Positions 25,336-53,721 are shown, counted from the stretch's first letter. The stretch: DNA of 64,000 nucleotides from Nitrosopumilus sp. (GCA_965214775.1 OZ243974.1:1920001-1984000), one strand, 5' to 3'. The notes: generated from the letters alone by a model not told the origin. Program-made: numbers and translations.

Positions 25336-25956
25336 ATGACGTTTGCGCTTGACATAGTCAATGTCGTGGCACATGCCGACTGCGGCAGGAGGATAGACAT
25401 AGACAAACTCATAGTCCACGGCGGCGCCGTGAAGGATCTTGACACGGAGGCGGCAAAGTACTGCTTTGAGGATCCGTCCTGCGACGACGGGACACGGCAG
25501 ACCACGGTCAGCGTGTTTGCTACGGGGAGGCTGCTGTGCGTGGGGGCCAACAGCATAGAGCGGGCGCGAGGCCACACGAGGAAGGTCCTTGAGATCATAG
25601 GGTCGCCGGATACCGAGGTAAAGGTGCACATGATAGTCCTCAACGGGACCATCGAGGGCGACGTCGACGTGCTGTCAAAGATGGGCAGGCTTGAGCGCCA
25701 CTGGAACGTCAGGTTCGAGTCAAACTTTCTCAGCGGCGTGATACTCGTCCAGGGCGGCGGCATATACATGGACATATTCCCGCACTCAGAGCCGGTGCGG
25801 CTGGGGCTGCGGGGTCCGGACATGGAGACAATCCATGACGCGGTCGGCAAGCTGGAGTCGGCGCTGTTCGGCGTGGATGACGCGGTGCCGGCCTCGGGGG
25901 CGCCGGGAATCAGGGCGGACGGGATCCGGACACGTCACGGACAGGACCGGACTTAA
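25336..25956 (+). CDS. Divergent TATA-binding protein homolog
   Basis: Two TBP repeats: IVNVVAHADC...VSVFATGRLLCVGANSIERA and VHMIVLNG...FESNFLSGVIL...DIF. Confidence 0.8.
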   Translation: MTFALDIVNVVAHADCGRRIDIDKLIVHGGAVKDLDTEAAKYCFEDPSCDDGTRQTTVSVFATGRLLCVGANSIERARGHTRKVLEIIGSPDTEVKVHMIVLNGTIEGDVDVLSKMGRLERHWNVRFESNFLSGVILVQGGGIYMDIFPHSEPVRLGLRGPDMETIHDAVGKLESALFGVDDAVPASGAPGIRADGIRTRHGQDRT

Positions 25957-25983
25957 AAGGAAACGGACCGTTTTAAAGCGGAT

Positions 25984-26625
25984 ATGAGCTGGTCAGAACG
26001 GCAGTCAGAGCGGTGGCATGATGTCTGCGACGAGTTAGGAATACTTGTGATCATGATGGGCATGTTCATAATGTTCGCCTTGCTGATTATCATCGTGATC
26101 CTCGCTGGTGCCGTCTTCATAGTGGCATTCGGCCACATTGAGCTGCCAGAGGACAACTCCATGGTGCTGAATTCGTTATGGGTGTCGCTTGCGTCGGCCG
26201 TGTGTCTGGGAGTCGGAGCGGCAGTCATTGGCGTAGGCAGACTGGCGGCATGGATTTCCAGGCGGAGGGGATCCGGACACGTCACGGACAGAACCGGGCT
26301 TAAGGAATTAAACCACTGGGATGCGGACATGAGCTGGTCAGAACGGCAGTCAGAGCGGTGGCATGATACCTGGTGCGAGACCGGAATGGCGTTGATCATC
26401 ATAGGCGCGCTTTCACTGTCCATCCCGCTGGCTGTCTTAGCGATCCTCCTTGGCGCCCTCTATCTGACTCTGTTCTTTGTGCCTGTGCTTGCCGGGATCG
26501 CGCTAATGTTTGCAGGCATGGCCGGCATCGAAGCGGGAGACATGGCGGCACGGGGTTCCGGAAGGAAGAGGCGGCCGGCAGAGACAGGCCACGAAAGGAA
26601 TCGGACCGTTGGGACGCGGACATGA
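25984..26625 (+). CDS. Membrane protein made of two tandem MSWSERQSERWHD-2TM modules
   Basis: Module starts at 25984 and 26329, with DNA-level repeats. Confidence 0.7.
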   Translation: MSWSERQSERWHDVCDELGILVIMMGMFIMFALLIIIVILAGAVFIVAFGHIELPEDNSMVLNSLWVSLASAVCLGVGAAVIGVGRLAAWISRRRGSGHVTDRTGLKELNHWDADMSWSERQSERWHDTWCETGMALIIIGALSLSIPLAVLAILLGALYLTLFFVPVLAGIALMFAGMAGIEAGDMAARGSGRKRRPAETGHERNRTVGTRT

Positions 26626-26969
26626 GCGAGCCAGGACGGCAGTCCGGGCGGTGGCATGACACCTGGCGCAAGACCGGAGATATTGTGATCATCATAGGCA
26701 TATTTTCGGTGTCCGTCCCGCTGGCCTGTTGCGTGATCCTCCTTGGTTTAATCCCGCTGGCAGTATCCGGTCTCATTGAGCTGACAGAGGAGAATGCATC
26801 CCCGCTGGTGGATTTGACCGAATGGTCTACGTTGGTGGTGTTATCGTGCATGGGAGGCGGCGCGGCCATTGCTGGCATAGGCAGGCTGGCGGCATGGACT
26901 TCCGGTCGGATCGGGAACCCGCAAGGCAGGTCAGGACGCGCTGGAACGGAGTCGGCGGGTCGGACATGA
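26622..26969 (+). CDS. Third paralogous 2-TM module (MSEPGRQSGRWHD)
   Basis: ATGA overlap with the previous gene; same motif and TM pattern. Confidence 0.7.
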   Translation: MSEPGRQSGRWHDTWRKTGDIVIIIGIFSVSVPLACCVILLGLIPLAVSGLIELTEENASPLVDLTEWSTLVVLSCMGGGAAIAGIGRLAAWTSGRIGNPQGRSGRAGTESAGRT

Positions 26970-27466
26970 CTGGGCGTTCGGAGCTTCCGGCATTCCTGAT
27001 CGGAATGCATGACTGTGTGGAGGGCATGGGCAGGCTACAAAAGTACGCGTTTCTTTCTGCAATGCAGATAAAGGAGCTGCGCAGTGTCGGGTTCTACGAT
27101 GACTGGAAGGCGAGCAACTTCGGACCGTTCAGTGCAGGGCTGGCAGGCGACATCAGGGAGGCGCTGGGCAGAAGCCAGATAACAAGGCACACGATCACAA
27201 ACAGCTACGGCTTCAGGGTGGACAGGTTCGCAGTAACCGGGCATGGCAGGAAAATCTTTGAGCGGTTAAGGCACGAGCACGCAGGCCTGTACAACAAAAT
27301 CGTAGCAATCACTGGAAGATACCAGGAGTACTCCCTGGCGCGGCTGCTGCAGGATGTCTACTACCGGTACCCGCAGTATGCAAGTGCAGGCACGACAAAG
27401 GCCGGCAGGGGGATTTACGAGTCGGACTCGTATCTCAACACGGAACACGACGGATCCGGCCTCTAA
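26966..27466 (+). CDS. Panacea/SocA (DUF4065)-like antitoxin domain protein
   Basis: GMGRLQKYAFL, WKASNFGPFS, LLQDVYYRYP pattern. Confidence 0.7.
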   Translation: MTGRSELPAFLIGMHDCVEGMGRLQKYAFLSAMQIKELRSVGFYDDWKASNFGPFSAGLAGDIREALGRSQITRHTITNSYGFRVDRFAVTGHGRKIFERLRHEHAGLYNKIVAITGRYQEYSLARLLQDVYYRYPQYASAGTTKAGRGIYESDSYLNTEHDGSGL

Positions 27467-27628
27467 TCACGGGGGATCAACGGCCATGTTTTTGAACTGG
27501 TTTATGCGATGCGGTTTTCATATAAACACGCAAATTGGCGGCGCGTGTCGGGTTGAGTTACAATGTGGAACAGAATGGAGATCACGGATCATGACGCGGT
27601 TAAATGGTTAGATGAATTGTGATGGTGG

Positions 27629-27916
27629 ATGTCTCGTAAGCACTCAAAAGCCGCCTGGGGATTGGCAGTGGCTGGATTTGCAGTCCTGACTCTTGGCATC
27701 ATTCAGTTCTTAGACTTGTTTGAACTTGGAGGAGAAGACATTGGTACGGTCTTAATGACGTATGGAGGAGTGGTCATCGGCATAAGTTCTACCGCATTGA
27801 TTACATCAAAACCATCCAATCTACAAAATCCGACGACTTGCGATTGCATGAAGTCTCCCACCTTTAACCTGTCAGGAAAGAACTCACATGTGACAGTGAT
27901 TTTCATGTCCAGATAG
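27629..27916 (+). CDS. Small 2-TM protein
   Basis: Two hydrophobic helices; TTAA box 29 nt upstream. Confidence 0.5.
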   Translation: MSRKHSKAAWGLAVAGFAVLTLGIIQFLDLFELGGEDIGTVLMTYGGVVIGISSTALITSKPSNLQNPTTCDCMKSPTFNLSGKNSHVTVIFMSR

Positions 27917-27982
27917 TGATGACATAGCCTGGTCCGTTCTGATCATTCCGCGCTTAAATTCTACGGTGTGTCATTGTTGTAC

Positions 27983-28366
27983 ATGTCCCTTCAGAGAAAG
28001 GCGCGGTGCGACAGGTGCGGCAAAGACATGAGACATAGCATGCTTGCATTCTGTTATAATCCGGGATGCGGCGACGACATGGACAATCCTGTCAGGTGCC
28101 GCAACAGAAAATCTCATCAGAATATCTGTGAGGATTGCGTGCTGGAGGATGTGCAAAAGACGCGGCCTGCGGCAGCTGCCCGCGACCTGCAGGATTCCAA
28201 ACCTTCGGATGCCGGAAATGCGAGGTATGCAGCATATGGACAGGGAGACGGCCGGCTGATGGATGAAATAACAGGCACCGCTGCAGGCATTGCCATATTT
28301 ACTGTCCTAGGCATCATCACGGGAATAATCCTGGCCGCTATTTCAGCTTCCGGTTTATCTCGTTGA
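27983..28366 (+). CDS. Cys-rich zinc-finger protein with C-terminal TM anchor
   Basis: CDRC, CYNPGC, C...H, CEDC; hydrophobic tail; TTAA box 29 nt upstream. Confidence 0.6.
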   Translation: MSLQRKARCDRCGKDMRHSMLAFCYNPGCGDDMDNPVRCRNRKSHQNICEDCVLEDVQKTRPAAAARDLQDSKPSDAGNARYAAYGQGDGRLMDEITGTAAGIAIFTVLGIITGIILAAISASGLSR

Positions 28367-28604
28367 GTATATCGCGCATCTCCTTGAGGGTGTCCGATAT
28401 GTCATCTAGCTTGTCCAGCTTCTTGTCCTGCCTTTCGAATGCGGCCATGATTTTTTTCATGTCCTTCTTGCTTAGAATCAAGGCAATCAGGAAAATGATG
28501 GTTGGTATAAAAACCGCCAATGGGACACCAATGGTCATTTTGCGGAAATTTTTTTGGACAACACCAGAGTGGCGGTACCCGTCCAGCAGGATGGACAGCA
28601 GCAC
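28338..28604 (-). CDS. Small TM + coiled-coil protein
   Basis: TM then KLDKLDDISDTL; paralog of 30944-31237; start probably the internal Met (MTIGV). Confidence 0.6.
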   Translation of the reverse strand: MLLSILLDGYRHSGVVQKNFRKMTIGVPLAVFIPTIIFLIALILSKKDMKKIMAAFERQDKKLDKLDDISDTLKEMRDILNEINRKLK

Positions 28605-28683
28605 GAGATCAAGGACTTCTGATCTGACTATCTAGCATTCACCATTGCAATTCATACAATCATAAGCGCACAGCCATGATCAG

Positions 28684-28787
28684 CTAAGTGAAATGTAAAT
28701 GAGGTTTGTTGTTTTGCCTTGCTGTTGAGGCGCCGCGCCTTATACCTGGTTTCTGTTTTGCTCGATTTCTTGGCACATTTCACTTGG
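28684..28787. mobile_element. MITE family D (104 bp)
   Basis: CTAAGTGAAATGT...ACATTTCACTTGG flanked by CAG; a truncated homolog lies at about 14940-15028. Confidence 0.65.
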
Positions 28788-28879
28788 CAGGTGAATCCCA
28801 CTTCCTCCACAATGCTGCGTGTATGACTCCACACGCCGTGTGATTTTCGCCTTAAATACATACCATAATGTTTTACTCA

Positions 28880-29548
28880 ATGAACTTGAGTAACTACAAG
28901 ACAAGACGGAAAAGGACGCTGGCAGTGTCGGCAGTATTGGGGATGGTCATCGGGCTAGGAATTACGGCCGCAGTCGGCGCCGGCGTATACTATACGTACC
29001 AGGAGCAGGCTGACTTGTTCTCCACATCAGCGCAGATCGAGGTTAGAAACCTGAACGCCATAAGATCCGGCGATACGCTGACCATAACTGCAAACGTGAA
29101 GAATGTCGGATCGACTGCGCTTACTGACGTGTATCTGGCCAATATAGGAGCAGGTGGTGAATTTTCAATCACAACAGACAACCCAAACGATAACATAGAA
29201 ATCAGATCTGGGACTCATACAGCTTTTACTGAGGTGAACACATCTTATGACGGCGGGGGTGATTTGTGTGATGGGCCCCTTGCAGGTGCGGATTGTGATC
29301 CTGCAGATGAAGGAACTCTCGAAGTTTCAGGTGTGTCATATAGTTCGCCAGATGGAGGCGCATCACTTGACGGCGGGGGAACAAACGCCATTAGGCTGAC
29401 GGTTACCATGGATGGACTCACTCCACCCGACAATAACATATCAAACACGGTGACAATCTCTGACAGACTCACATTACAGCTGGGATTCACATCAGGTGAC
29501 GACGAATTCCTCTCAGACGTCTACAATACCCGAGTCCGTCCGGGTTAA
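28880..29548 (+). CDS. Archaeal type IV pilin (class III signal peptide), candidate major pilin
   Basis: RRKRTLA/VSAVLGMVIGLGITAAVGAGV, NVKNVGS; own TTAA box 28 nt upstream and T-tract downstream. Confidence 0.8.
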   Translation: MNLSNYKTRRKRTLAVSAVLGMVIGLGITAAVGAGVYYTYQEQADLFSTSAQIEVRNLNAIRSGDTLTITANVKNVGSTALTDVYLANIGAGGEFSITTDNPNDNIEIRSGTHTAFTEVNTSYDGGGDLCDGPLAGADCDPADEGTLEVSGVSYSSPDGGASLDGGGTNAIRLTVTMDGLTPPDNNISNTVTISDRLTLQLGFTSGDDEFLSDVYNTRVRPG

Positions 29549-29660
29549 CCACATTTTTTACCTTGCTCCACATAGTCGCAATCATCATCGTCTCCATTGC
29601 TTTACTTGACAGGATCATTCCACGGAGCCGATGTGATGCCGGCCCAGGGGGGTTTCACTG

Positions 29661-30074
29661 GTGAACCGCAATACGGAGATTGGCAGGATATCCGAATACC
29701 TCGATGCCGACGAGGACGTGCTGTACGCGGCAAGGCAGCGCAGGTTCGTCCCAGGGGGCTCGCCGGTGACGCCCAACGCCATATTTGCCACCAATAAAAA
29801 GCTGATAATCCGCTCGCCGCTGATGCTCGGCCTGCGAGAGCACGTCGAATACTTTCACTACCATGATATCGTAACCATAAACTACGAGCACGGCTGCTTC
29901 TCTTCCGCGCTTGTCCTGACCGCGCCCGGGATGGGAACCACTGCGCGCCCGGCAAAGGGCTCCGGTCAGCCGAGAACCGAAAGCGGTACCATAGGAGGGA
30001 TGCCAAAGGCCGACGTCATAAAAATAGCAAGCATAATCCGGGAGAGAACGGCAGGGAGGAGGCAGAAAAGATGA
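29661..30074 (+). CDS. Bacterial PH-domain protein
   Basis: LDADEDVL, IFATNKKLII, YHDIVTI pattern. Confidence 0.7.
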   Translation: MNRNTEIGRISEYLDADEDVLYAARQRRFVPGGSPVTPNAIFATNKKLIIRSPLMLGLREHVEYFHYHDIVTINYEHGCFSSALVLTAPGMGTTARPAKGSGQPRTESGTIGGMPKADVIKIASIIRERTAGRRQKR

Positions 30075-30334
30075 GCCGGGAAGTCACAAGATCCCCGTCA
30101 AAAATGTGGTACATCGCCCACGTCTTCTTCTGGGTGGTAACAGGAATCATCTGCTATATCGTCTGGAAGGACGACAACCGGCAGATGGCAAAAAAGCACC
30201 TCATCGTATCCCTCTGGATGCCGGCAGCAGTATGGATTGCAATCTCGCTTGTATCGCTTGCCATAATACCAGACGTGGAGACTGATCCACACATGTGGCT
30301 CCTGGCGTTGGGGAATAGGGGGGCATCGCATTGA
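30071..30334 (+). CDS. Small 2-TM protein
   Basis: WYIAH...GIICYIVWKDD...AKKHL; coupled to the upstream gene. Confidence 0.65.
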   Translation: MSREVTRSPSKMWYIAHVFFWVVTGIICYIVWKDDNRQMAKKHLIVSLWMPAAVWIAISLVSLAIIPDVETDPHMWLLALGNRGASH

Positions 30335-30675
30335 ATCTTCACGACCTGGCAATGGCGGGAATGATGGTATCCGTAACGGTGGCGATCATGTTTAACGTGC
30401 TGGTGATGTTTGATCCGATCCCGATAATCGGATTCCTAACCGCCGTGCTGGTAACCGTAGTACTCGTAACTGGCACAGTCGCCTGGTTTGTGCTTTCGTT
30501 TTTAGACGGCAGAAAAAAACGCACATGGCCGCCAGGCAGCACAAAGCAGGGGACACACCAGTGCCTGAAGGGGGGCAAAAGTCCAGCCCTGACCCGGGCC
30601 AGGAAAGGCACACGGATGCCGAGGGCGCCAAACACGGTGGGATCGGTCTTCAATGAGCCGTACGGCCGGCCATGA
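30331..30675 (+). CDS. Small membrane protein
   Basis: Two hydrophobic helices and a basic tail. Confidence 0.5.
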   Translation: MNLHDLAMAGMMVSVTVAIMFNVLVMFDPIPIIGFLTAVLVTVVLVTGTVAWFVLSFLDGRKKRTWPPGSTKQGTHQCLKGGKSPALTRARKGTRMPRAPNTVGSVFNEPYGRP

Positions 30676-30774
30676 CATAGGCGGTCACAGAGGTGTGGTG
30701 CGGCGAGCCGAGCGTACGCGATGATAAAAACGCAAAAAGAATAGCGCCGGGTGACACACCCGGCATGATTTGCA

Positions 30775-30900
30775 CTACCTGTGCCTCAGCGTCCTGGAGC
30801 ACCCGGGACACTTTACAGGCCTTTTGACGACGGGCTGCCACGAGTGGCCGCACAGCCTCCTTGGAAGTTTTCTTACGGCGGCCTTTCTCCTTGCTGTCAT
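30775..30900 (-). CDS. 41-aa basic zinc-ribbon microprotein (below the ORF track cutoff)
   Basis: MTARRKAAVRKLPRRLCGHSWQPVVKRPVKCPGCSRTLRHR: CGHxW-P...P..CPxC pattern. Confidence 0.55.
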   Translation of the reverse strand: MTARRKAAVRKLPRRLCGHSWQPVVKRPVKCPGCSRTLRHR

Positions 30901-30943
30901 GATTCCGAATATACGCTTCGATTCAAGGGGATGCAGGATGCGG

Positions 30944-31237
30944 CTACTTCCTCTCCGGAAGGCGCTCCTTGAGGATCTTCAGTATCTTCTGGAGTGTGTC
31001 TGACATATCGTCAAGCTTCTCAAGCTTTGCGTCTATGTTGTCAAACCGCTCCATTATCTTGCGCGTGTCATCCTTGGTCAGAAACATGTTGATTATCAAG
31101 AAGAGACTTGCTAATAAGCCGGCGCAGAGCAGCGCGTATGCGGAGGCCGTGTGCGGATGCTCCCAGATTCCTGGTATCATCGCAAAGATTACAAGCGCTA
31201 CAATGATCATGACTACCTTGCCTATCATCACATACAC
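30944..31237 (-). CDS. Small 2-TM + coiled-coil protein
   Basis: KLEKLDDMSDTL; paralog of 28338-28604. Confidence 0.6.
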   Translation of the reverse strand: MYVMIGKVVMIIVALVIFAMIPGIWEHPHTASAYALLCAGLLASLFLIINMFLTKDDTRKIMERFDNIDAKLEKLDDMSDTLQKILKILKERLPERK

Positions 31238-31423
31238 TTATGCGGCCCTCCAGATAGCCTCGCACTTGTCCCGGATCCAACGTGCCATCATGATATACGG
31301 CACGGGGATCCGAATTAACCATTGTGATCGGCGCGCCCTGGTCAAGCCGCGCAGTCAGGGAGGCCGGATCGCCGGCAGAAACCCGAATCCCCCGCCTTAA
31401 AAGCGGGCCGGCAATTTGTCTGC

Positions 31424-32116
31424 ATGCAGAGGGCCAAATATTCAGAGACAAGGATGGTCTGGTTTGCAATCACGCCGCTGATAAACCAGCCGATCTTCAC
31501 GTTCCCGATGGTAGGCTACATCTCCGCGTACCAGGCCATCATCATATTCTTCGTAGGGCTGCCGGCGATGTTCATCACCATGCACGTGACCGGCGAGCTG
31601 TCCCACGGGATACTTCCGTTTCTCGGAATAGTGGGATTCACGATGCTCCGGCCGCCACTGATATCATACGAGGGCAGGCTGCTTGCCAGGCTGAAGTTCA
31701 TGATGCTGGGGGGATCTTCGGGCGGCAGGAGCGTGAAAAAAAATCCAAAGAAAAACATGGGCAGGTACCTCGGGGTTCCGTCGGCAGAAAAGGAGGGACC
31801 GGAGGAGCCTGCGCCGGCGCCTGTCCGGGCAGTCGATGAGCCCATGACGGTCCGAGTCGGCGGGGAGCGCATGATGCAGATAGAGATAACCCTCAGAAAG
31901 CCAGACGGCGGGCTATTTGCAGGCAGGAAGGTAATCATACTGCTCGATGATGCCCCGATACTGACAAGCGTCTCCTCCCCGTCGGGACAGGTAAGAATAT
32001 ACCTGGAAAACGACGAGTGCCACGGCAGCAGGACGCTATCTGTATCGGATACTGCCCCCGACGGCTCTGCCGTCCGGACCCTTCTGACAAAGGAGATAAG
32101 GTTCGTTGGCCAGTAG
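31424..32116 (+). CDS. PrgI/VirB3-like membrane protein with C-terminal Ig-like domain
   Basis: PIF...ISAYQ followed by two TM helices and a basic stretch; first gene of a long coupled operon. Confidence 0.5.
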   Translation: MQRAKYSETRMVWFAITPLINQPIFTFPMVGYISAYQAIIIFFVGLPAMFITMHVTGELSHGILPFLGIVGFTMLRPPLISYEGRLLARLKFMMLGGSSGGRSVKKNPKKNMGRYLGVPSAEKEGPEEPAPAPVRAVDEPMTVRVGGERMMQIEITLRKPDGGLFAGRKVIILLDDAPILTSVSSPSGQVRIYLENDECHGSRTLSVSDTAPDGSAVRTLLTKEIRFVGQ

Positions 32117-34115: not shown

Positions 34116-34117
34116 CG

Positions 34118-35530: not shown

Positions 35531-35606
35531 GACGGGCCTCCCCGGCACCGCAAAGGCAGGATCAGATTTAAGGCCTCCCTTTTATTCTGAGGGTTGTTTT
35601 TCAGGC

Positions 35607-40887: not shown

Positions 40888-42660
40888 CCCGAAGAGGCCG
40901 GCACCCAATACGCGCCTGTGCATATCTGCAGGATTCATAGCGACGCTGGCACTTGTCACGGCGCTATCTGAGGGCACAGGCGAGGACGTCATGCTTGCCG
41001 GATTCCTTGCCGTCTGTGCCGTCGTCCCGCTGCTGATACCTAGAAGAAAGAGGACATACGCGTCCTCTGACGGGACCGTAAGGGCCAGAGCGCCGACATC
41101 GTGGTCAGTATGGACCGTATTCATAATCATGGAAAAGCACATGCCCGCACTCAAGCGGCTCCGGCTCCACAACGAGCGCATGCTGGCCCGCATAGTCCCT
41201 GCCACCGGCACCACGTTTGACATAGAGCGCGCAGCGACCGTTTCCACCAGGCTCTCGCTGCTGCTGATACTGCCGTCGGCAGTCCTCGGTGCCATGGCCG
41301 GCATGCACATCCACTTTGCGTTTTATGGCGCAGCGGCAGTCCCGCTGGTCACGTTCTTTGTCCCCCTTGTCCAGCTGCGCTTTTCTGTTCTTGAGCGCAA
41401 GACCCGCATCGAGGAGGAGACGGCGTACTTTCTGTGCTTTGTCAATACAGTCCAGACGGTAGGCATGTCGCTGTACATGGCATTTGACTCGATACGGGGC
41501 AAGGGGATATTTCCCGGGATAGAGCGCGACGCGCACGAGATAGTAAAGCGCGTGGAGATGCTCGGCATGACGCAGAACGACTCCCTTGACGTGTACGCAA
41601 AGAATCATCCGTCACCGTCCTTTGCGGCGTTCGTATCCGGATACCTCTCCAAGATCGCCTCTGTCGGAGACGTTCCGGCGTATACGGAGTCCAAGGCAAA
41701 GTTCTTCTTCAACGAGTATATTGCCTCGTGGGAGCGATACGAGAAGAGCGCCCAGGAGATATTCAGCGCCGTAATCATGATCGCCATACTGCTCCCGATG
41801 ATGATGGCCTTCAACTCGATTGTCGGGACGGGATCCTCGTCGGGCCTCATGATAATGCTGGGAATCATCGTCTCACCCGTGGTCTCGGTAGTCATGATCT
41901 CCATGCTGAACTCGTCGCAGCCTGCAACGGGCAACATGCTGGCGGTCTCGTATCCCTCGATCGCCGCAGGTGCCGGCATAGGGCTCACGCTTGCAGTCGC
42001 CGGAGTGAGCATCCCGACGGTCATAGGACTGTCGGCCTTTGTAGGGGCCCTTCTCAACGCCATATTCACGAGGGGCAGGATGATGGAGATAACGAGGATA
42101 GACGACATGATGCCCGAGTTCATGCAGGACGTGACCGAGCAGAGCAGGGTAGGCAGCAACGTAAACCAGATAGTGCTGTACCAGTCGGGAAAGGGCCTGT
42201 ACGCCAGGCAGTTTGAGGAGATACTGGGGCGGCTGGCGGCCGGAATACGGAGCGGGATGAGGATGGAGGAGGCATCAAGGAAGATACGCACAAAGTCCGT
42301 CAACCTGAGGTTCATACTGTTCCTGCTGTCGCACGTCCAGTCTACCGGAGGCGGATCATCTGAGATATTCCTTGCAATCACGGACTTTATCACAAAAATA
42401 CAGCAGACCAAGATCAAGATATCAAAGGGGCTGGGGATGCTCACGATTATAGTGTATGCTTCCCCGTTCATCATGTTTGGCATATCGCAGGTCATGATCA
42501 CCATGTTCTCTGACGCAGGCTCTGCCCCCATCGGCATGACAGTCGACTCTGACATCCCGTCTGCCTTTGGCTCCGTAAGCGACGATGTAAAAAACGGCAT
42601 ACAGCTGATGACTGTCATGACCACGATACCGATGGGGGTGGTTGCCGCAAAGATCTCAAG

Positions 42661-44296: not shown

Positions 44297-44403
44297 ATCT
44301 CAAGCTTTACTGTAAAAAACACGTTTCCTGTCGCGATAACGTCGCTGCTGTCGGTGGTAGCCCTCAATATCGTGCCCGAGATCGTGTCGATGATGGGGGT
44401 GGC

Positions 44404-47223
44404 ATGACGGTGTTCGGGCGGAAAAAAAAGGAGACTGCAAGGCCCGCTCCCAGAAGGACGGCCAAAAAAACGGACTATGTGGGGTTCAGGTACGGCGACC
44501 CGGCGCTGGCGCCGACCAGCGTGGATGCGAACGCGGCATTCGGGATATCGGCAGAGGAGCGCGTCCACACAGCAATCTTCGGGCTGCCAGGATGCGGCAA
44601 GTCGTCGATACTCAAGCTCCTCATATACCAGAACATCCGGAACGGCCAGGGATTCATGGTGATAGACCCGCACGGGGAGCTGGCGCGCGACGTTATGAGG
44701 ATGATACCAGAGTCGCGGCACCAGGACGTCATATATGTCAACCCGGCCTCGCTTTACAGGTTCGGCCGGACCGTCCAGATCAACCCGCTTGAGGTAAAGT
44801 CGGAGGACGAGCGGTACGTGGTGGTCATGGGGTTTGTCAACATGCTGCAGAACCTCTACAAGGACTCGTGGGGCCCCAGGCTTGAGACTGTCCTGCGAAA
44901 TGCCGCCAACGCCCTTGTCGAGACCAAGGAACACAACAGGCTGTTCAACATATCCGCGATGATAACGGACGAGGGAAGCCGGGAGGCCATACTGGACGAC
45001 GTGGCGTCAAAGCCAGTAAGGCACTTTTGGGAGGAGATATTCGCAAAGCAGTACGCCAAGGATGCGGGCTCCTCGGCGTACAACAAGATAGACAAGATAC
45101 TCTCGACGCCGACGGTGGCAGCCATGCTTGATGCCGCAGAATCAAGCATCTCGATCCAGGACATAATCGAGAACAGGAGGATGCTCATAGTGGATCTCTC
45201 AACCGGCGCCTCGGACGACATCTGCCAGTTCCTGGGGTCCATATTTCTCAACATGGTCTACGTGTACGCCAAGAAGAGGATAGACATACACGGGGACTCC
45301 GACGACGAAGGCCTCGATCCGTTCTATCTTTACGCCGACGAGGCGCACATGTTCTCAAACACCACGATGTCGGAGATGCTCCGCGCCCTGCGAAAGTTCA
45401 ACATAAAGATGACCATCGCGACCCAGACGTGCAACGCGTACGACAGGGAGTTCTCCATGGAGATACCCGGCGTCTGCAAGACCATAATCACCGGAAGGTG
45501 CGACTATAACACGGCAAACCTGTTCCGCGCAAACATGAGCATGTCAGTAGAGGACATGCAAAAGATTCCGTCGCACTCCTTTGCGCTGGCGTCTGACGAG
45601 GGCGGGGTGAGGGCCCACGGGGTCTTCCGCTCAAGGCCGGTCCCGCTTGAGGGAGACGCAGAGTCGGCGGGGCGCGACTGGAAGGAGGTCGCAAAAAAGT
45701 CGGCTGCCAGGTGGGGCAGGCAGATAATGATGGAAAAGTACATCCCGCGTGCCGGCATCGGCAAGCTGCTCTTTACTCCGGTCGAGGCCTGCATCGTACA
45801 CCTGATGCACTTTGACAACCGCGACTGGTACCGCGAAGAGATATTCCAGGCGGCAAAGACCGTGTTTCCGGGCATACTTGAGAGGCACATAGCGGGCGCC
45901 CTGGACAAGCTGACGCGGGAGCTGTATGTCAGGATAATGTATCCCAAGAGTGATGACAGCGACCAGCACGACTCCATAAAGAGATACGTCCTGGGCGAGA
46001 GGAGCAGCAAGACGTACCTGTCAGAGGCATACGGAGGGAGGCGAGCCGGAGGCGAGGGGCACAACGACGTGCTCTTCAAGATAGCAGATGAGAACAGGCG
46101 GCGCCACAGATACTGCATACCGGATCTCGGCCAGGGCGGGGACGAGGCGCCGGACCTTCTGATAATAGAGCCGGGAACGGTAAAAAGCAGGGAGGGATAC
46201 ATGACGTACGATCCGCACAGGTGGAACGAAAAGAACAGGCTTGCCGTCGAGGTGGAGACCGATCCGGGAAAGCACATGGAGCACTCCGTATACAACTATA
46301 CCAAGAACCATGATCGCGGCTATGACGTGTGGTTTGTCTGCTTTGAGGAGCGCCACAGGGAAAGGCTTGAGGAGGCCATAAGGCAAAAGCATCCCCCCTT
46401 TGAGGGGTGCAAGATGGACACCATAAACGCCGGCCGCGTCCTGAAGGGCGCAGACGATCTGCCGGAGACGTTTGAGGAGACATTTACAGACGTCGCAGTC
46501 AGAAAGATAGACGAGATACTAAAGACACTTGCAGACGACACGCCACTTGAGAGGCAGCCCACCAAGAGTACGGTTCCACGGGAGGCGCTTGCAGACGCCT
46601 CCAAGGGAACAAGGGATCTTGCCGAGGTTTACACAAATACCGTCGGCTCATCAAGGGAGGACGTCAAGTCCTCCGTGCACGTGCCTGCGGCAGATCCCCC
46701 GCCGGGCCACATAGAGAACGAGACGCAGTGGGCGATACTTGACGGCATACGGAAGGCAGGTGCCATGGAGCGCGACGCCGATCTCATCCGCGAAAAGTTC
46801 GGGATAGGCCGCGCAAGCAGGAACGAGATAAAGGGCGCCATCGAGTACCTGCTGATGAAGAAGATGCTGCGGCAGGTATACTATTCGAGGCAGAAAAAGA
46901 CAGGCTCCCTTGACGGGAGCGGCGACAGGAAGACAAGCAGACGTGTCGCGATGCTCGTGCCGTTTGAGAGTCATCCGGAGTCCGGGTCAGGCGGTCATCC
47001 GGAGCCGGCACCCCCGGCCGATCAGGAATCTGACACAGGACACGATCCTGAACAGGATCCTGATCAGCTCCCCGGCGAAAAGCCGAGTGCTGCCATAACC
47101 GACTTTGATGCGTCCGAATACACGGACATTGCTCTTGCGGCGATGCTGGCAGATGAGACGCAAAAGGCAAACCACGCTGCGGCCAAGGCCGAGCTTGACA
47201 GACGGGAGGACGTCGAGGACTGA
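44404..47223 (+). CDS. VirD4/TraG-type coupling ATPase with C-terminal wHTH and PD-(D/E)XK-like extension
   Basis: GLPGCGKS, VIDPHGELA, WGPRLE, YLYADEAH, LRKF...IATQ; then GGEGH...APDLLII...LAVEVET. Confidence 0.85.
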   Translation: MTVFGRKKKETARPAPRRTAKKTDYVGFRYGDPALAPTSVDANAAFGISAEERVHTAIFGLPGCGKSSILKLLIYQNIRNGQGFMVIDPHGELARDVMRMIPESRHQDVIYVNPASLYRFGRTVQINPLEVKSEDERYVVVMGFVNMLQNLYKDSWGPRLETVLRNAANALVETKEHNRLFNISAMITDEGSREAILDDVASKPVRHFWEEIFAKQYAKDAGSSAYNKIDKILSTPTVAAMLDAAESSISIQDIIENRRMLIVDLSTGASDDICQFLGSIFLNMVYVYAKKRIDIHGDSDDEGLDPFYLYADEAHMFSNTTMSEMLRALRKFNIKMTIATQTCNAYDREFSMEIPGVCKTIITGRCDYNTANLFRANMSMSVEDMQKIPSHSFALASDEGGVRAHGVFRSRPVPLEGDAESAGRDWKEVAKKSAARWGRQIMMEKYIPRAGIGKLLFTPVEACIVHLMHFDNRDWYREEIFQAAKTVFPGILERHIAGALDKLTRELYVRIMYPKSDDSDQHDSIKRYVLGERSSKTYLSEAYGGRRAGGEGHNDVLFKIADENRRRHRYCIPDLGQGGDEAPDLLIIEPGTVKSREGYMTYDPHRWNEKNRLAVEVETDPGKHMEHSVYNYTKNHDRGYDVWFVCFEERHRERLEEAIRQKHPPFEGCKMDTINAGRVLKGADDLPETFEETFTDVAVRKIDEILKTLADDTPLERQPTKSTVPREALADASKGTRDLAEVYTNTVGSSREDVKSSVHVPAADPPPGHIENETQWAILDGIRKAGAMERDADLIREKFGIGRASRNEIKGAIEYLLMKKMLRQVYYSRQKKTGSLDGSGDRKTSRRVAMLVPFESHPESGSGGHPEPAPPADQESDTGHDPEQDPDQLPGEKPSAAITDFDASEYTDIALAAMLADETQKANHAAAKAELDRREDVED

Positions 47224-47309
47224 CAGTCCGCCGGCCCATGCGGTGCTGGCAGACTGACAGACAAACGGGCGGGATTTCCCCCTTAAAACGTGCCATGGCA
47301 TTTTTTTCC

Positions 47310-48032
47310 ATGAACCGAAGGAACAAAAAATACGTCGATTTCAAAAAGATCTGCGGGGTGCTCCACGTGTCAGAGGCCAGGCTTGAGAAGCTCCTGGGCC
47401 AGTGCATCCGGAGCAAAAGCGACAACATCTCAATATACAACAAGGCCACAGACATGCGGTACTATCTAAAGCCCGTATGTGTGGAGGGAGAGACGTGCAT
47501 GGTCGAACTCTACGAGGTCCACGGCGGCTCTGAAAACAAGGTGATATTCCGCAACTGGGTGTGCACCAGGAGGCCCAAGAACAGGAAGAGGGAGGCCGCA
47601 ATATCTGAGATCTTTGGCGTCGTGATCCTTATCGGGATAGCTGGCGTCGGTGCAGTACTGTTCCACTCGATTGCGATCGAGTGGGCAGAGACCGAGGAGA
47701 GGTATGACACCGAGCTGGTCGTCTTCAAGCTGGCAAAGCTGTCTGCAGGAGACAGCGTGGCGCTGGCCGAGATATCATTTTTGACGTACGGGGAAGGGGC
47801 CGTATCACTGTCATTTGGGGAGGATCTTGAATCAGTGGATCTGCTTGATTCTGACGGGGAGCCGCTGGACGGCGATACAACGCGCGTAGAGGAGCTGAGC
47901 TCGGGCAGGCTCGTAACGTTCGAGGGGCTGGTCGACATTCCAGAGGATGCGGGGCGCGGCAGCCACATCCATGCGGCCATCATACTGGATGGCGGGCAGG
48001 AGGTACAGCACGTGGTGAGGATCAGTGGCTAG
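47310..48032 (+). CDS. Pilin-like protein with internal class III signal and a long N-terminal extension
   Basis: NRKREAA/ISEIFGVVILIGIAGVGAVLF about 100 aa into the ORF; TTAA box 27 nt before ATG 47310. Confidence 0.65.
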   Translation: MNRRNKKYVDFKKICGVLHVSEARLEKLLGQCIRSKSDNISIYNKATDMRYYLKPVCVEGETCMVELYEVHGGSENKVIFRNWVCTRRPKNRKREAAISEIFGVVILIGIAGVGAVLFHSIAIEWAETEERYDTELVVFKLAKLSAGDSVALAEISFLTYGEGAVSLSFGEDLESVDLLDSDGEPLDGDTTRVEELSSGRLVTFEGLVDIPEDAGRGSHIHAAIILDGGQEVQHVVRISG

Positions 48033-49155
48033 GAGTGCAAGCCAGGCCACCGGCGAGCTGCTGTCTGCCATTGCAGTCATAGGCGTCACCGCTGTGGCAG
48101 CCGCAATACTGTTTGTTACGTTTGCAGAGCAAAACCAGGAGGGAACCGAGGTGATAGACACCAGGGGCGAGATAGAGCTGGCACGCGCCTCGGAGCTGGT
48201 CGACACCTCGCATGTCAGCTGTGCGGGCACGCGCCTCTCGTTTCTGTTACACAACTATTCCAGGGATTATGCGATGAGTACCGACGGGTTCAGGGCATAC
48301 ATTCTTGACAGCGGCGGCGAGCTTGCGTTCCGCCTGTCAGAAGGCGGCGACGACTATATCGAGATAATGACTCCAAGCGTTACCGGCGGCGCGTGGCACC
48401 ACGTCGTGCTGACAAACGACGGCAGCGGAACCCGCGAGGGCATGAAGGTCTACCTTGACGGCGAGCCTGCCGAGTCTGTTCCCGGCGGCGGAGCCGGCGC
48501 CGTCACAGGATCGATCCTCAACAATTTCCCCATAGGTATCGGGGCAAGCAGTACGGGAAAGGATCCGGTATCGGATGCGGCAATCGACGAGCTGATATTG
48601 TCCAGGCACCTGCTGACCCCCGGGCAGGTGGAGGCCTATTATTTGAGCGGGACATATCCGTACACGGCCATCATTCATCTTCCATTTGAGGATGATCTGG
48701 TTTCAAACGACGTATCCAACCACGGAACACTCGTAAGCGGAACCGAGGAGTACACCGACTCCACCAGGGAACCTGGCCTGGGACGTGCGCTGGTTCTTAA
48801 CGGCACACATGTCACGGTACCCGAGGTCAACCTGGACTATGACGCCAATGAGATATTCACGATATCGTTCTGGATAAAAAAGACGGCGCCTGACGACGTA
48901 GACGTGTCCATACTCTCAAAGTCAGACCAGTACTGGAACTCGGGGCTGAACGTGTGGATGTGGTCCGGCTCCGGAGGCAAGCTCAAGGACGGCGACCTTG
49001 GCAGCATCGAGTGGCTTGCACTCGACATGGCCACGGCCGCCGACGAGATACCTCCGGCGACCACGATAGTAGTGAGATATGACGGATACGTCTGCGGTGA
49101 CATGCTGATCCTGCAGACGCCGTCAGGGGAGATAGTCCGGGTGAGAACCGCATGA
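48025..49155 (+). CDS. Pilin-like protein with LamG/concanavalin A-like domain (putative adhesin)
   Basis: GELLSAIAVIGVTAVAAAILF; GAWHHVVLT...KVYLDG...IDELIL; FTISFWIK. Confidence 0.75.
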   Translation: MARSASQATGELLSAIAVIGVTAVAAAILFVTFAEQNQEGTEVIDTRGEIELARASELVDTSHVSCAGTRLSFLLHNYSRDYAMSTDGFRAYILDSGGELAFRLSEGGDDYIEIMTPSVTGGAWHHVVLTNDGSGTREGMKVYLDGEPAESVPGGGAGAVTGSILNNFPIGIGASSTGKDPVSDAAIDELILSRHLLTPGQVEAYYLSGTYPYTAIIHLPFEDDLVSNDVSNHGTLVSGTEEYTDSTREPGLGRALVLNGTHVTVPEVNLDYDANEIFTISFWIKKTAPDDVDVSILSKSDQYWNSGLNVWMWSGSGGKLKDGDLGSIEWLALDMATAADEIPPATTIVVRYDGYVCGDMLILQTPSGEIVRVRTA

Positions 49156-51506
49156 GGGCCGTGCCGGCAGCGCTGTTTCTACTGCTGCTGGCATCTGCCC
49201 TCCCGCTGCTGGCATCCTTTCTTGCCGAAGACGCCTTTGCCCACCCGTACGGAAGATGCAGGCCGTGGATAACGGGATCCTTGCACTATGACGTCAGGGA
49301 CGCCGACGGGAACCCGAGAAGCAACCCCAACGACACGCTGTATCCCGGCGATGCCGTAAGGTATGAGTTTAGCTATGGATGGAGCGGCAACTGCTACCGC
49401 GAAAGGACGTATCCGGTGACTGACAGCGGCGCCATAAGCGTATACGGATCGCACGGCTCCCACGGGTCGCGCGGCGGCAACGCGGAGGCGCTCATAGCCA
49501 GGACCAACGACTGCCACGGAGGGGGAAGCCGCGGTGCCGCAGGATACGGGGGCGATGACTCGTGGGACCGCGACAGCGCAAAGACCGGCTGCGGCGACAT
49601 CAAATACAAGATCTCAGGCAAGGAAAAGCACCGGCACCGGTGCGGCGATGGCTACTGCACGTTCTACATCACGCGCTGGGCACACGACACGCTGCATCCT
49701 GCCACGGTTGCCCCCGTAGTCGAGGTCCAGATGTACGAGCACATCATAAGGGATCCCTACGGATACATGGCAGCAAACGGAGACCATACAAACTATGTAT
49801 GGGATCCCATAGCAATTGAGCATGCGGCCGACTTTACGTACAAGAACCAGAGGGAGGGGACGATAACCTTTGACTATTCACGGGCGTTCTCCCCGCTCGT
49901 CGAGGAGGGGGGATACGAGTGCGACCGGAGGTGCGTCCGATCCCTGGCGGTGGCGGCAGGCTCGCCGCTTGATGCCACAGGAATAGGATTCCTTCCGTAC
50001 CAGCATGCGTCAGAGAACGGGGGAGGGATGTACGCGTATGCGTCGCCGGGGCTTGACGTGATGGGCAACAGGGAGATACGGTATGACGTCCGCGTCCTCA
50101 ACGAGGGGCGCCTGATAAACACGCACCACAACCAGACAGTCCAGCTGATAGTCAGCTATGATCCGGTGTTTGACAAATATGAGTATCCGGTGCTGGCAGA
50201 CGGGCGCAAGTACGCGTATGATGACAGGCAGGGACTCGTGATGCTGTACTCGGGCTCCGTCGGCAGCGGCCCGGACGACGACGGGCTGCTTCACGGGGAC
50301 AGGCGGAGCAGGATAAACGCGTTTTACCCCAACACCACCATGCACTCCCTCTTTGACGGCATCCCAGACGTAGCCATTGATCCCGATCTTCTTGAGTGGG
50401 ATTCCATAGATCACGTGAGAGGGACGGATCCCGACGGGTGGCTCAGCCTGGATGCAGGACACGCGATGTTCGAGGACGAGGGGTATGGCATACTGAGGTT
50501 CTCCCAGGAGATCTCTGGCATCGTGCACCGGGACTCTAACAACCTCAACTTCCGCCACAATGCAACCACACACAACGTGATAGCGTCTGACAGGTGGGCA
50601 GGCCATGATTCTTATGCCAACTTCAACTATACCTACCAGTACCCGCACACGCCGTTTGCGGCATGGTACAACGTCACGGCCTTTGACGCGTCGGGGGCAG
50701 CCGACGACGGCGTGACGCCCATAACGGTATCTGCCACCGTCGCAAACCTGACGCACGCAGGCTCCGTGCCGCAGCACATACCGGCAGGACAGGGCAGGGT
50801 CACCGTAATGCTGGATGCGTACGTCCATGACAAGGCGCTTCACGACACCGGCGATGAGGCCTTTGCTGCTGCCGTACTTGACGAGACGTACGACATGGAG
50901 AACGGCGCAGGCGGCACCGGCGACGTATCGATGTGGCTAAAAAAGACGGGACTGTCATTGGATGAGAACTACATCCCTGGAAACGACATACTCGGACAGC
51001 CGCGGTACCTCTTGCTGGGGCTCGAGTCGGAGATGGACACCGTCATAGAGATACCCGGCAGGGAGATCAGCCGCATACTTCACACGGAGTTTGACGTCGA
51101 TTACGTCGAGGAGATGACCGTGTCCGAGATTCCGCTGTCCATGTCGCGTTCTGTCAGCGACGGTCTCCGGACGCAGCTGGTCTCCGTGTCTGTCCCGGAA
51201 TGGTTCGGGTACATAAGCTCCATCGAGATGAACGGGGAGAGCGTCGACTTTGGGACCGACTGCGTCTACGAGTGCGTCTTTACTGACATCGATGGCGGAA
51301 ACGTCACGGTATACAACGTCTGGGGCGGGACTGCCGTGGGGACGCTCAACGCCTCGGACATTCTGGTGCATGCCACCCCAGAGGTCGTCTTTGAGGAAAG
51401 CCACGATCTCATCTGGTATGTCGTGGCCGTAGGCATCATGGGGTTTGTGGCGTATTCTGCCCTGAGGCATTTCTGGAAGAGGACGCTTGTATCTTCGTCG
51501 CAGTGA
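49152..51506 (+). CDS. Large secreted, membrane-anchored protein
   Basis: Signal peptide, Cys/His/Gly-rich N-domain, C-terminal TM. Confidence 0.75.
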   Translation: MRAVPAALFLLLLASALPLLASFLAEDAFAHPYGRCRPWITGSLHYDVRDADGNPRSNPNDTLYPGDAVRYEFSYGWSGNCYRERTYPVTDSGAISVYGSHGSHGSRGGNAEALIARTNDCHGGGSRGAAGYGGDDSWDRDSAKTGCGDIKYKISGKEKHRHRCGDGYCTFYITRWAHDTLHPATVAPVVEVQMYEHIIRDPYGYMAANGDHTNYVWDPIAIEHAADFTYKNQREGTITFDYSRAFSPLVEEGGYECDRRCVRSLAVAAGSPLDATGIGFLPYQHASENGGGMYAYASPGLDVMGNREIRYDVRVLNEGRLINTHHNQTVQLIVSYDPVFDKYEYPVLADGRKYAYDDRQGLVMLYSGSVGSGPDDDGLLHGDRRSRINAFYPNTTMHSLFDGIPDVAIDPDLLEWDSIDHVRGTDPDGWLSLDAGHAMFEDEGYGILRFSQEISGIVHRDSNNLNFRHNATTHNVIASDRWAGHDSYANFNYTYQYPHTPFAAWYNVTAFDASGAADDGVTPITVSATVANLTHAGSVPQHIPAGQGRVTVMLDAYVHDKALHDTGDEAFAAAVLDETYDMENGAGGTGDVSMWLKKTGLSLDENYIPGNDILGQPRYLLLGLESEMDTVIEIPGREISRILHTEFDVDYVEEMTVSEIPLSMSRSVSDGLRTQLVSVSVPEWFGYISSIEMNGESVDFGTDCVYECVFTDIDGGNVTVYNVWGGTAVGTLNASDILVHATPEVVFEESHDLIWYVVAVGIMGFVAYSALRHFWKRTLVSSSQ

Positions 51507-51578
51507 CCGCATGGCAGGCCGCGCCTAGGGGCCTGACTCCCTTCCGGCTTAATATGGAAACGCATTCCATTAGGTATC

Positions 51579-51654
51579 AGCGGGGTGGGGAAGCCAGGCC
51601 AATCCCGGCGGGTTCATTGCCCGCAGACCGGCAGTTCAAATCTGTCCCCCGCTA
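51579..51654 (+). tRNA. Initiator-type tRNA-Met(CAT) with atypical anticodon loop
   Basis: AGCGGGG/CCCCGCT acceptor (A1-U72), GGGA/TCCC D-stem, GCGGG/CCCGC anticodon stem, loop TTCATTG, GGCAG TTCAAAT CTGTC T-arm, A73; TTAA box 30 nt upstream. Confidence 0.85.
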
Positions 51655-51761
51655 TCATAGGTGCCAGCTTCCTACACCTTCCAGCGGGAACCGGCTCCCG
51701 CTGACTTGTAAGTCCCAAAATCCAGCTATGCCTTTAAATTATAAGACTCGTGGGCTCATCA

Positions 51762-52517
51762 GTGAGAACTAGGCTAATTGCTTGCGAGCATGCAAGCACG
51801 ACAATACTTGACGGGGAGACGGTCTGCAGGAAATGCGGCGTAGTCCTCGGCGAGCAGCGCGAGCAGGTGCCTGCCGGCGAGCGTGAGGCTGCCGGGGCAA
51901 AGTCTACTACAAACATCTATGAGAGGCATGTCACAGGCAGCCGGGACATAATTCCGGATACCGACCAGATGAAGTCCCTCCGGCGCTATTCGCACACGAA
52001 CATCTATGACAATGACAGCAGGAAAAAGCTCAGGAACATATCTCGGTTTTCAAACGCATGCGACTCGCTGGGGATCGATGACACCGCTGCAGAGTACGCC
52101 GTAAGGCTGTTCCACGCGGCCCTCAAGCAGAGGGGCGGCGACAGGCGGACAGCCGACGTGGCTGCCTGGTCTATCTACAAGAGCTGCAAGAACCACGGCA
52201 TCCCGATCGACGGCAACGTCATAGCCGACAACGTAAGGCGGCAGTTCGGGCGGATGCGGATAGGCGACATTATGAGCATCGCGTATGACATGATGGACAT
52301 CCCCGTCAAGGACAACCCCGACGGCGTCATGAAGTACCACTTTCGGCTGGTCCTCAAGAGGCTGACAAAAAAGCTCCCCCGCATGGACGACAGGCAGTAC
52401 TCAAGAAGGCAGGCAGATGCCTGGAACCTGTACAATACGCTATTTCTGTCCGGCTCCTACGACAAGAGGGCAAAGAACGCAGTATGCAAGGCCTTTGGAA
52501 TAAGGAGGAACACATGA
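51762..52517 (+). CDS. Divergent transcription initiation factor B (TFB/TFIIB) homolog
   Basis: Zn ribbon CEH...GETVCRKCGVVL; cyclin fold CDSLGI...A.RLF...VAAWSIYKSCKNHGIP; second repeat degenerate. Confidence 0.8.
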   Translation: MRTRLIACEHASTTILDGETVCRKCGVVLGEQREQVPAGEREAAGAKSTTNIYERHVTGSRDIIPDTDQMKSLRRYSHTNIYDNDSRKKLRNISRFSNACDSLGIDDTAAEYAVRLFHAALKQRGGDRRTADVAAWSIYKSCKNHGIPIDGNVIADNVRRQFGRMRIGDIMSIAYDMMDIPVKDNPDGVMKYHFRLVLKRLTKKLPRMDDRQYSRRQADAWNLYNTLFLSGSYDKRAKNAVCKAFGIRRNT

Positions 52518-53635: not shown

Positions 53636-53721
53636 GCTTGCACGCAGCGTGCCTGTCTGGCAGCCGGCCCGGGTGCGCCGAGGCCGGCATTGGGCTTGCG
53701 TCGCCTGAGTGCTTTGTCGGC

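Follow-up and report, generated by a model that had tools for sequence, protein, structure and literature searches.

According to the main text of Krupovic et al. (2019; PMC6563490), every thaumarchaeal conjugative element identified carries a gene for a homologue of the transcription factor TFIIB, mostly just upstream of a ParB-like gene, and the main text of Abby et al. (2018; PMC5797428) raises the idea that such a homologue could alter promoter specificity. Here, we analyzed a 64,000-nucleotide stretch of DNA from Nitrosopumilus sp. (GCA_965214775.1 OZ243974.1:1920001-1984000; the whole stretch is referred to as the window) that carries a GC-rich integrated island of conjugative type. Like the integrative and conjugative elements (ICEs) in those main texts, the island holds a divergent TFIIB/TFB gene in a conjugation module with a VirD4-type ATPase, TadC, a prepilin peptidase, and pilins, upstream of a ParB-like gene or, in the island, of a gene in that position. 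Those main texts contain neither "TBP" nor "TATA"; the lineage to which the island belongs also carries a divergent paralogue of the TATA-binding protein (TBP). The host genome is a single contig of 2,833,656 bases with a GC content of 0.471, and since it encodes archaeal AmoA (386 bits), the host is an ammonia-oxidizing archaeon.

An earlier reading of the window, made from the sequence alone, had proposed that the element brings its own initiation kit, namely a divergent TBP at 25336, a divergent TFB at 51762, and an initiator-type tRNA-Met at 51579, about 110 bp before the TFB, and it had known of no description of the combination on a thaumarchaeal conjugative-type element. All three genes were found at these places (Table 1). 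The TBP open reading frame (ORF) has a Pfam TBP match and falls in a clade of its own, the TFB ORF (51750/51762-52517; 255/251 amino acids) is a TFB homologue by profile-profile comparison and by fold, and the tRNA called by ARAGORN lies 107 bp before the GTG at 51762. As to novelty, both divergent TFIIB homologues and the suggestion that they change promoter specificity were already in print. For a TBP on an archaeal conjugative element, we found no description in the literature searched; the term is absent from the main texts of PMC6563490, PMC5797428, and PMC13705601, and the supplementary annotation of PMC6563490 may list one. What appears to be new, beside the known TFB part, is the TBP partner, which is fast-evolving, remodeled in its second repeat, and co-inherited with the TFB in one element lineage.

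TFB3 of Sulfolobus, a chromosomally encoded protein without a cyclin core, acts together with the canonical TFB, and its targets include genes for pili and DNA import. In the available text of two reports (PMC6101591, PMC6101594), TFB3, a TFB paralogue in truncated form, activates the DNA-damage response; it is, like the island TFB, a noncanonical and shortened paralogue, and it serves as a switch for genes related to DNA exchange. The island protein differs from TFB3 in that its cyclin core is kept and a TBP paralogue stands alongside it. TFIIB homologues are also common in archaeal type IV pilus loci (arCOG01981; Makarova et al. 2016, PMC4858521), and, in contrast to the island, these loci come without mention of the other factor: in the available text, "TATA" is absent and the count of "TBP" is 0. 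A precedent for a pair is Halobacterium NRC-1, for which the available text of Coker and DasSarma (2007; PMC2121645) gives four TBP genes on pNRC100, one on pNRC200, and two TFB genes on pNRC200, and proposes specific TBP-TFB combinations for different promoter classes. The likeness to the island is that TBP and TFB genes are carried together, there on extrachromosomal replicons. As presented in that text, however, the NRC-1 factors are close paralogues of chromosomal genes, on large replicons and with genome-wide regulation, whereas the island pair is highly divergent, remodeled in repeat 2 of the TBP, and linked to conjugation.

The TBP-like protein matches the Pfam TBP family (PF00352) over residues 6 to 88 only, which correspond to repeat 1 (34.5 bits against a cut-off of 22.9; E = 1.9e-8). 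Its AlphaFold2 model is a two-repeat saddle (predicted local distance difference test score [pLDDT], 84.4) in which the strand-helix pattern occurs twice, with pLDDT values of 84 to 97 over residues 1 to 180; 23 of the 30 rows of the underlying alignment were ordinary TBPs, which biases the model toward the TBP fold. Comparison of this model with the PDB using Foldseek returned TBPs at all of ranks 1 to 44, the best being 1mp9_A (E = 6e-10; template modeling [TM] scores of 0.68/0.72; root mean square deviation of 2.9 over 186 columns). The genome has four TBP loci, comprising two canonical genes (~95 to 104 bits per repeat), one divergent chromosomal gene, and the island copy, whose product is 16 to 18% identical to the host TBPs. 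In a maximum-likelihood tree of 30 rows, seven of seven element TBPs formed one clade (support, 100/99), with the three host TBPs on the other side. The end branches of the element TBPs measure ~1 to 1.5 changes per site against an overall median of 0.07, except for two pairs of near-identical rows, among them the window protein with P0003. The divergent chromosomal paralogue (G000:C1:1708646-1709209, plus strand; 34 bits for repeat 1 and 67 bits for repeat 2) has the longest branch in this tree (2.72).

An exhaustive profile search across 1.84 billion cluster representatives found 20 clusters of the TBP-like family at E ≤ 1e-30, each matching in one full-length stretch; below that level, the matches were ordinary TBPs in two stretches. 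Nine of the family clusters were looked up and held one to three members each, all unnamed proteins. On these counts, the element-type TBP family is small and rare. Its 22 members, at ~30% identity, share motifs of their own in both halves of the protein (L.IENV, AKY.F, TVNVY..GKI.C.GANSV.RA, V.MSG, and RGPDE..I). In all seven element TBPs, the invariant Asn-Val of the first strand of repeat 1 is retained, and in six of the seven the Arg of repeat 2 is replaced by a hydrophobic residue. Because the saddle and part of repeat 1 are kept while repeat 2 has been rebuilt with family motifs, contact with DNA is probably asymmetric or not TATA-like. We read the protein as a paralogue selected for a changed function and not as a decaying copy. 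The reading frame is intact in six of the seven genomes that carry an element-type TBP. In the seventh (G292:C1:805178-805546; 62.6 bits with the family profile), it contains an in-frame TGA; that genome has no close TFB-like match, and the locus looks like a decayed element.

The TFB-like gene is less easily recognized. Its Pfam zinc-ribbon match stayed below threshold (Zn_Ribbon_TF, 17.5 bits against a cut-off of 29), and a genome scan with PF00382 recovered, outside the island, four full-length TFBs and a short TFB-like gene but not the island gene. A profile of 21 island-type proteins aligned by hhalign to the four host TFBs with a probability of 97.5% (E = 5e-12) over 147 columns, spanning the zinc ribbon through the first cyclin repeat. 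The C-terminal half, where a TFB carries the helix-turn-helix that reads the BRE, was left unaligned by sequence; in that region the 21-member family conserves a different motif, RAR.AV..AFG. The zinc-ribbon ligand pattern is C-x-H ... C-x2-C, with C8, C22, and C25 invariant in all 21 family members. Between ribbon and core, the linker (B-reader/B-linker region) is ~30 residues shorter than in the host TFBs (query 10-159 versus template 11-190); it is modeled at low pLDDT (44 to 64) and keeps a family motif, S..NLYE....GS. The AlphaFold2 model as a whole (pLDDT, 80.4) has two ribbon strands within residues 13 to 22 and, for the two cyclin-fold repeats of the core, nine helices (pLDDT, 84 to 97) within residues 81 to 250. 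Its best Foldseek matches were RNA polymerase II and III pre-initiation complexes and crystals of TBP-TFB, TFIIB, and Brf2 over 175 to 282 columns, with only one match at E ≤ 0.001 and TM-scores of 0.3 to 0.5 (1d3u_B, TMt of 0.50). In a quick tree, 18 TFB-like proteins separated from the four host TFBs (Shimodaira-Hasegawa-like approximate likelihood ratio test, 100). A tree comparison with host paralogues, which the earlier reading had proposed as a check, thus places each of the two factors in a clade apart. Judged from sequence and model, the TFB-like protein is a compact TFB with a ribbon, a short linker, and a cyclin core. A complex prediction with this core (residues 85 to 251) and the TBP-like protein, run without controls, scored 0.26 against a mark of 0.32 and weighs neither way.

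The two genes were then followed in relatives by querying 400 other genomes of the class with each island protein. With the TBP-like query, five genomes gave strong matches (E ≤ 3.1e-15), one (G292) gave the fragment described above, and 25 gave weak matches confined to repeat 1 (E of 2.9e-5 to 9.1e-4); those of the weak matches that were placed in the TBP tree are ordinary TBPs. The TFB-like query matched 14 genomes closely (E ≤ 2.5e-25) and a further 89 more weakly. Wherever the TBP-like gene occurs (five of five genomes), its contig also holds a close TFB-like gene (E ≤ 2.8e-35), 5 to 56 kb away. A word-index search found one close relative of each protein, both on one contig of 178,508 bases, and a related-loci search of genome contigs with the TBP-like protein gave no match. 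The arrangement is conserved as well. When 41 window ORFs were compared by tblastn with 255,681 bases from five class genomes (G148, G072, G110, G036, and G149), 18 of them (25336 to 55895, from the TBP-like to the actin-like gene) had homologues, in the same order, in at least three of the five. The positions of the TBP-like and TFB-like genes are kept in five genomes of four genera, and the two genes bracket the conserved row, the former at its head before the pilin and transfer genes and the latter at its tail before the gene in ParB position. The conclusion that both genes belong to the element and not to the host set is supported by these comparisons of sequence.

Six genes of the island, namely, the TBP-like, pilin-like, and TFB-like genes, 31424, 55969, and the tRNA gene (about -28), are preceded at a distance of ~27 bp by boxes of the type CTTAAA/CTTAAT, and similar boxes precede the TBP-like genes of the relatives. 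From their sequence, host factors can probably read the factor genes of the element.

The tRNA presents a different picture. Without intron mode, ARAGORN found one tRNA in the window, a tRNA-Met(CAT); in intron mode, it found four CAT tRNAs in the genome, including a canonical initiator at 727225-727299. Archaeal initiators are marked by an A1:U72 pair and three consecutive G:C pairs that close the anticodon stem. The island tRNA has both, and its acceptor, D, and anticodon stems are those of the host initiator; the two differ in the D loop, the variable loop, three T-stem pairs (with pairing kept), and three of the seven anticodon-loop positions. The label "initiator-type" in the earlier reading is therefore borne out by the stems and contradicted by the loop, which reads TTCATTG in the island tRNA and CTCATAA in all 29 other initiator tRNAs at the best BLAST loci of the class. 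The changes fall at positions 32, 37 (now U), and 38 (now G), and U33 and the CAU anticodon are kept. RNAfold retained the cloverleaf with all four stems paired and added a U32-G38 pair, which gives a 6-bp stem and a 5-nt loop. Rfam did not list the tRNA at the RF00005 gathering threshold of 29 bits, and at E ≤ 10 reported only tRNA-Sec (14.8 bits), compared with 60.6 bits for the host copy. The 14 close TFB-like genes have no tRNA gene within 1.5 kb, and the island tRNA is in none of five related islands, which hold only tRNA-Pro and tRNA-Phe. No near-identical donor was found among the 400 class genomes, where the best nonself match was 87% identical (host copy, 84%). Among the five elements, the noncoding stretch before the TFB-like gene has diverged too far to place the insertion of the tRNA. 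An origin as a relic of an attachment site is unsupported, as no tRNA-Met 11-mer is repeated at the island ends (±120 kb). From these comparisons, the tRNA is an initiator-derived, one-off, lineage-specific insertion with an abnormal anticodon arm, outside the conserved module. A hairpin with an 8-bp stem and a 6-nt loop lies 28 bp past the tRNA (window 51682-51703), with arms that resemble those of the acceptor stem of this tRNA; it may act as a terminator or be what is left of a second, collapsed copy of the tRNA.

We lean, guardedly, toward the explanation that the island is an integrated element with a dedicated TBP-like/TFB-like pair that alters transcription of its genes. Both factor genes, whose promoters are of the ordinary TATA-like kind, would be read by host TBP and TFB. 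Their products would then form an initiation pair dedicated to the element, or each would partner a host factor, and the resulting change in recruitment of RNA polymerase to element genes would switch the program of transfer and maintenance. In this role, the proteins would resemble a sigma factor carried by a plasmid or phage. A stronger version, in which a fully orthogonal pair (the TBP with rebuilt repeat 2 and its MSG and RGPDE motifs, plus the compact TFB) recruits host polymerase without host TBP or TFB and is joined by a nuclease-resistant initiator tRNA changed at positions 32, 37, and 38, is in our view distinctly unlikely.

Several observations weigh against a dedicated initiation pair, beginning with the alignment bias of the saddle model noted above. 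An alignment of 22 canonical TBPs has 81 columns with at least 95% invariance, of which the window protein retains 14 of 40 in repeat 1 and 8 of 41 in repeat 2. All seven element TBPs have lost the first-strand Asn of repeat 2, and in four of the seven the next-but-one Val, which we take to face DNA, is Glu or Asp; the protein may thus not bind DNA in the manner of a TBP. Of the 14 genomes that the TFB-like query matched closely, nine showed no element-type TBP near the match, even with the family profile, so the TBP-like gene is dispensable for such elements. Five of these nine are complete or nearly so and belong to one genus, and the other four are fragmented assemblies in which absence is undecidable. 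In the TFB tree, this genus nests beside G110 and G149, both of which carry the TBP-like gene, a pattern that fits loss of the gene and could also reflect repeated gain. The co-occurrence of the two factors in relatives, which the sequence-only reading had proposed as a check, held in one direction, from TBP to TFB, and not in the other. No private promoter motif was found upstream of the element genes, and host tRNA genes bear the same kind of box; the DNA thus does not call for a private factor, and the proposed private promoter program gave way to ordinary TATA-like boxes. The Pfam tyrosine-integrase family PF00589 has genome matches at 534652, 1400915, and 2804946 only and none near 1920001-1990000, other integrase types not having been searched for, and, given the insertion sequence (IS) interruptions, the island may be immobile and its genes idle. 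One alternative is that the pair acts negatively or outside initiation, with the TBP-like protein as a decoy that ties up host or element TFB, or the TFB-like protein, cotranscribed with the gene in ParB position, in partition or copy control and repression of transfer in place of polymerase recruitment. In its favor are the low retention in repeat 2, the acidic residues at the presumed DNA-facing Val, the 34-bp overlap of the TFB-like gene with the next gene, which adjoins it in all five relatives, the shortened linker, and the failure of the second half of the cyclin core to align by sequence. Against this alternative, which we consider unlikely, the invariant zinc-ribbon ligands of the 21 TFB-like proteins fit contact with polymerase, and the Asn-Val of repeat 1 is kept throughout. 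That both genes are functionless, decaying leftovers of chromosomal paralogues we can hardly credit. The very long branches, the IS-filled island with no tyrosine-integrase match nearby, and the interrupted copy in G292 are what decay would produce, but the other six frames are intact, the family motifs persist across 22 members at ~30% identity, both proteins yield confident models, and their syntenic position is held across four genera.

Two further alternatives assign a role to the tRNA. The three-part kit of the earlier reading, in which TBP, TFB, and initiator tRNA jointly serve transcription and translation initiation of the element, has in its favor that all three genes are present, that the tRNA with its promoter-like box stands 107 bp before the TFB-like gene, and that its four stems are fully paired, the T-stem changes relative to the host preserving the pairs. 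It is weakened by the comparison with relatives, none of whose 14 TFB-like loci or five islands holds the tRNA, and the loop with U37 and G38 recurs in none of the 29 other initiators, the Rfam score is subthreshold, the predicted loop is 5 nt long, and the host has a canonical initiator of its own; we hold the joint kit to be very improbable. There is also a small chance that the tRNA by itself is a selected, working variant, for example, an initiator that escapes an anticodon-loop nuclease. Three of its ~10 differences from the nearest relatives fall within the 7-nt loop and spare U33 and CAU, the stems are paired, and the box is in place. A pyrimidine at position 37 is, to our knowledge, very unusual and speaks against a working variant, as do the absence of a PIN/VapC-type gene among the 10 small island ORFs scanned, the single occurrence, and the possibility that the T-stem changes predate capture. 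Precedent for such escape comes from bacteria and phages: as far as the available texts go, phage tRNAs have been proposed to evade anticodon-loop nucleases through loop mutations (PMC10264068), and initiator tRNA is cleaved by VapC in enterobacteria (PMC5175351). On its sequence, the island tRNA is most likely a relic or a noncanonical RNA and not a working initiator.

The interest of the locus lies in several directions. The TBP-like family with its compact TFB would be a test case for the amount of change that the TBP saddle tolerates before it ceases to function with RNA polymerase, and for whether archaeal mobile elements redirect transcription with general factors of their own. An orthogonal pair, if true, would be the archaeal counterpart of plasmid- and phage-borne sigma factors and a useful tool for controlled expression in archaea. 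The locus also bears on the two to five TBP and 4 to 11 TFB copies per genome in ammonia-oxidizing archaea, which are read as a host regulatory expansion in the available text of PMC7554672. In the present genome, which also has four full-length TFBs, conjugation-type clusters hold one of the four TBP loci and both compact TFB-like genes; because those loci sit in such clusters, part of the TBP/TFB expansion is mobile-element cargo.

Table 1. Features of the island and its surroundings, in window coordinates
Feature	Position	Strand	Basis and remarks
Element-type TBP paralogue, 206 aa (amino acids)	25336..25956	+	Pfam, AlphaFold2, Foldseek, tree; first in the row of pilin and transfer genes
Compact element-type TFB paralogue, 251 aa (255 aa from GTG 51750)	51762..52517	+	hhalign, AlphaFold2, Foldseek, tree
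Island-specific, aberrant tRNA gene of initiator-like type (CAT)	51579..51654	+	ARAGORN
GC-rich integrated conjugative-type island	22000..64000, running ~4 kb past the window end to ~68 kb		GC and synteny
Pilin-like protein, 226 aa	28868..29548	+	Basic-then-hydrophobic N-terminus; no Pfam/NCBIfam match
Conserved transfer-module protein, 1077 aa	35795..39028	+	Homologues in 4/5 related genomes, E down to 2e-168
TadC/T2SSF-type membrane platform protein	40865..42727	+	Pfam T2SSF, 53.8 bits; kept in 4/5 relatives
VirD4/HerA-type coupling ATPase, 939 aa	44404..47223	+	Pfam DUF87, AAA_10, TrwB_AAD_bind (24.4 bits vs 20.5 cut-off)
383-aa gene in the ParB position of thaumarchaeal ICEs	52484..53635	+	Directly 3' of the TFB-like gene, 34-bp overlap; there in 5/5 relatives
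Prepilin (class III signal) peptidase	54257..54958	+	Pfam Peptidase_A24, 29.5 bits vs 26.5 cut-off; 3/5 relatives
Actin/MreB-fold (ParM-like) protein	54942..55895	+	Pfam MreB_Mbl, 32.6 bits; 48-56% identical in 4/5 relatives
IS66-family transposase, between platform and ATPase genes	42746..44284	+	Pfam DDE_Tnp_IS66, 131.9 bits; many genomic copies
IS630-type transposase where the left island edge is eroded, 187 bp before the TBP-like gene	24039..25148	-	Pfam DDE_3, 97.1 bits, and HTH (helix-turn-helix) domains; identical copies elsewhere in genome
Transposase genes (n = 5; different IS families) within or next to the island	21444-22451, 24039-25148, 42746-44284, 61780-62397, 63071-64000		Most with many near-identical genomic copies

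The island itself was delimited by composition and synteny, and both agree with the GC-rich transfer island of the sequence-only reading. GC content per kb is 0.49 to 0.63 from 22 kb to the window end, against 0.39 to 0.50 in the greater part of the first 22 kb and a genome value of 0.471; per 2 kb, it is 0.51 to 0.61 between 22 and 68 kb. The feature set that PMC6563490 gives for ICEs, in the part available, is present, with a VirD4/HerA-type ATPase, T2SSF/TadC, Peptidase_A24, a pilin-like protein, and a TFB-like gene before the 383-aa gene. The pilin assignment is our reading of the N-terminus; homologues of this gene occur in all five related genomes, 52 to 2100 bp from the TBP-like gene, and in the window the two are separated by 2.9 kb with small ORFs that are not conserved. 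The coupling ATPase is single-copy in the genome and 54 to 71% identical to the copies of the relatives. Neither the 1077-aa protein nor the 383-aa protein has a Pfam or NCBIfam match, and for the latter, the label "ParB-like" is taken from gene position, as described in PMC6563490; no hidden Markov model of either database confirmed a VirB4 homologue or a ParB fold. Four transposases of different IS families by Pfam lie inside the block or at its edges. Neither a 14-mer from the tRNA-Ser region nor an 11-mer from the tRNA-Met region (±120 kb) recurs at the island ends as an attachment repeat. Given the synteny, the lack of a PF00589 match nearby, and the lack of a flanking repeat in these searches, the island is an element of conjugative type from a lineage that recurs, and it may be eroded and immobile here.

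Several smaller observations concern the surroundings of the island and its relatives. In the otherwise 0.41 to 0.50 left part of the window, a separate GC-rich patch of 2 kb (0.56) occupies positions 6001-8000. About 2.4 kb to the left of the GC rise is an intron-containing tRNA-Ser(GGA) (19555-19654, plus strand; Rfam, 40.6 bits), and adjoining it is an ORF of 444 aa (19994-21328, minus strand) with weak AAA+ and winged-helix matches. The tRNA may be the integration target and the ORF a replication-initiator-like gene, with no matching repeat at the other end. In G036, two tRNA-Phe(GAA) genes (L085:2366-2440 and L086:19065-19137) are separated by 36.7 kb, flank the end of the related island that holds the TFB-like gene, and may represent an attachment-site duplication. 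Contigs identical to the window were assembled from three DNA-like runs (X1-X3) of four; they possibly come from the same source as the window and are silent on expression. The same genome contains a second conjugation-type cluster (G000:C1:615000-647000), in which homologues of the 1077-aa protein, TadC, a 784-aa protein, and the actin-like protein are 24 to 32% identical. Its TFB-like gene (622364-623101, minus strand; 246 aa; PF00382, 25.8 bits) has no TBP locus nearby. A third, partial conjugation-type set is located at ~490 to 497 kb.

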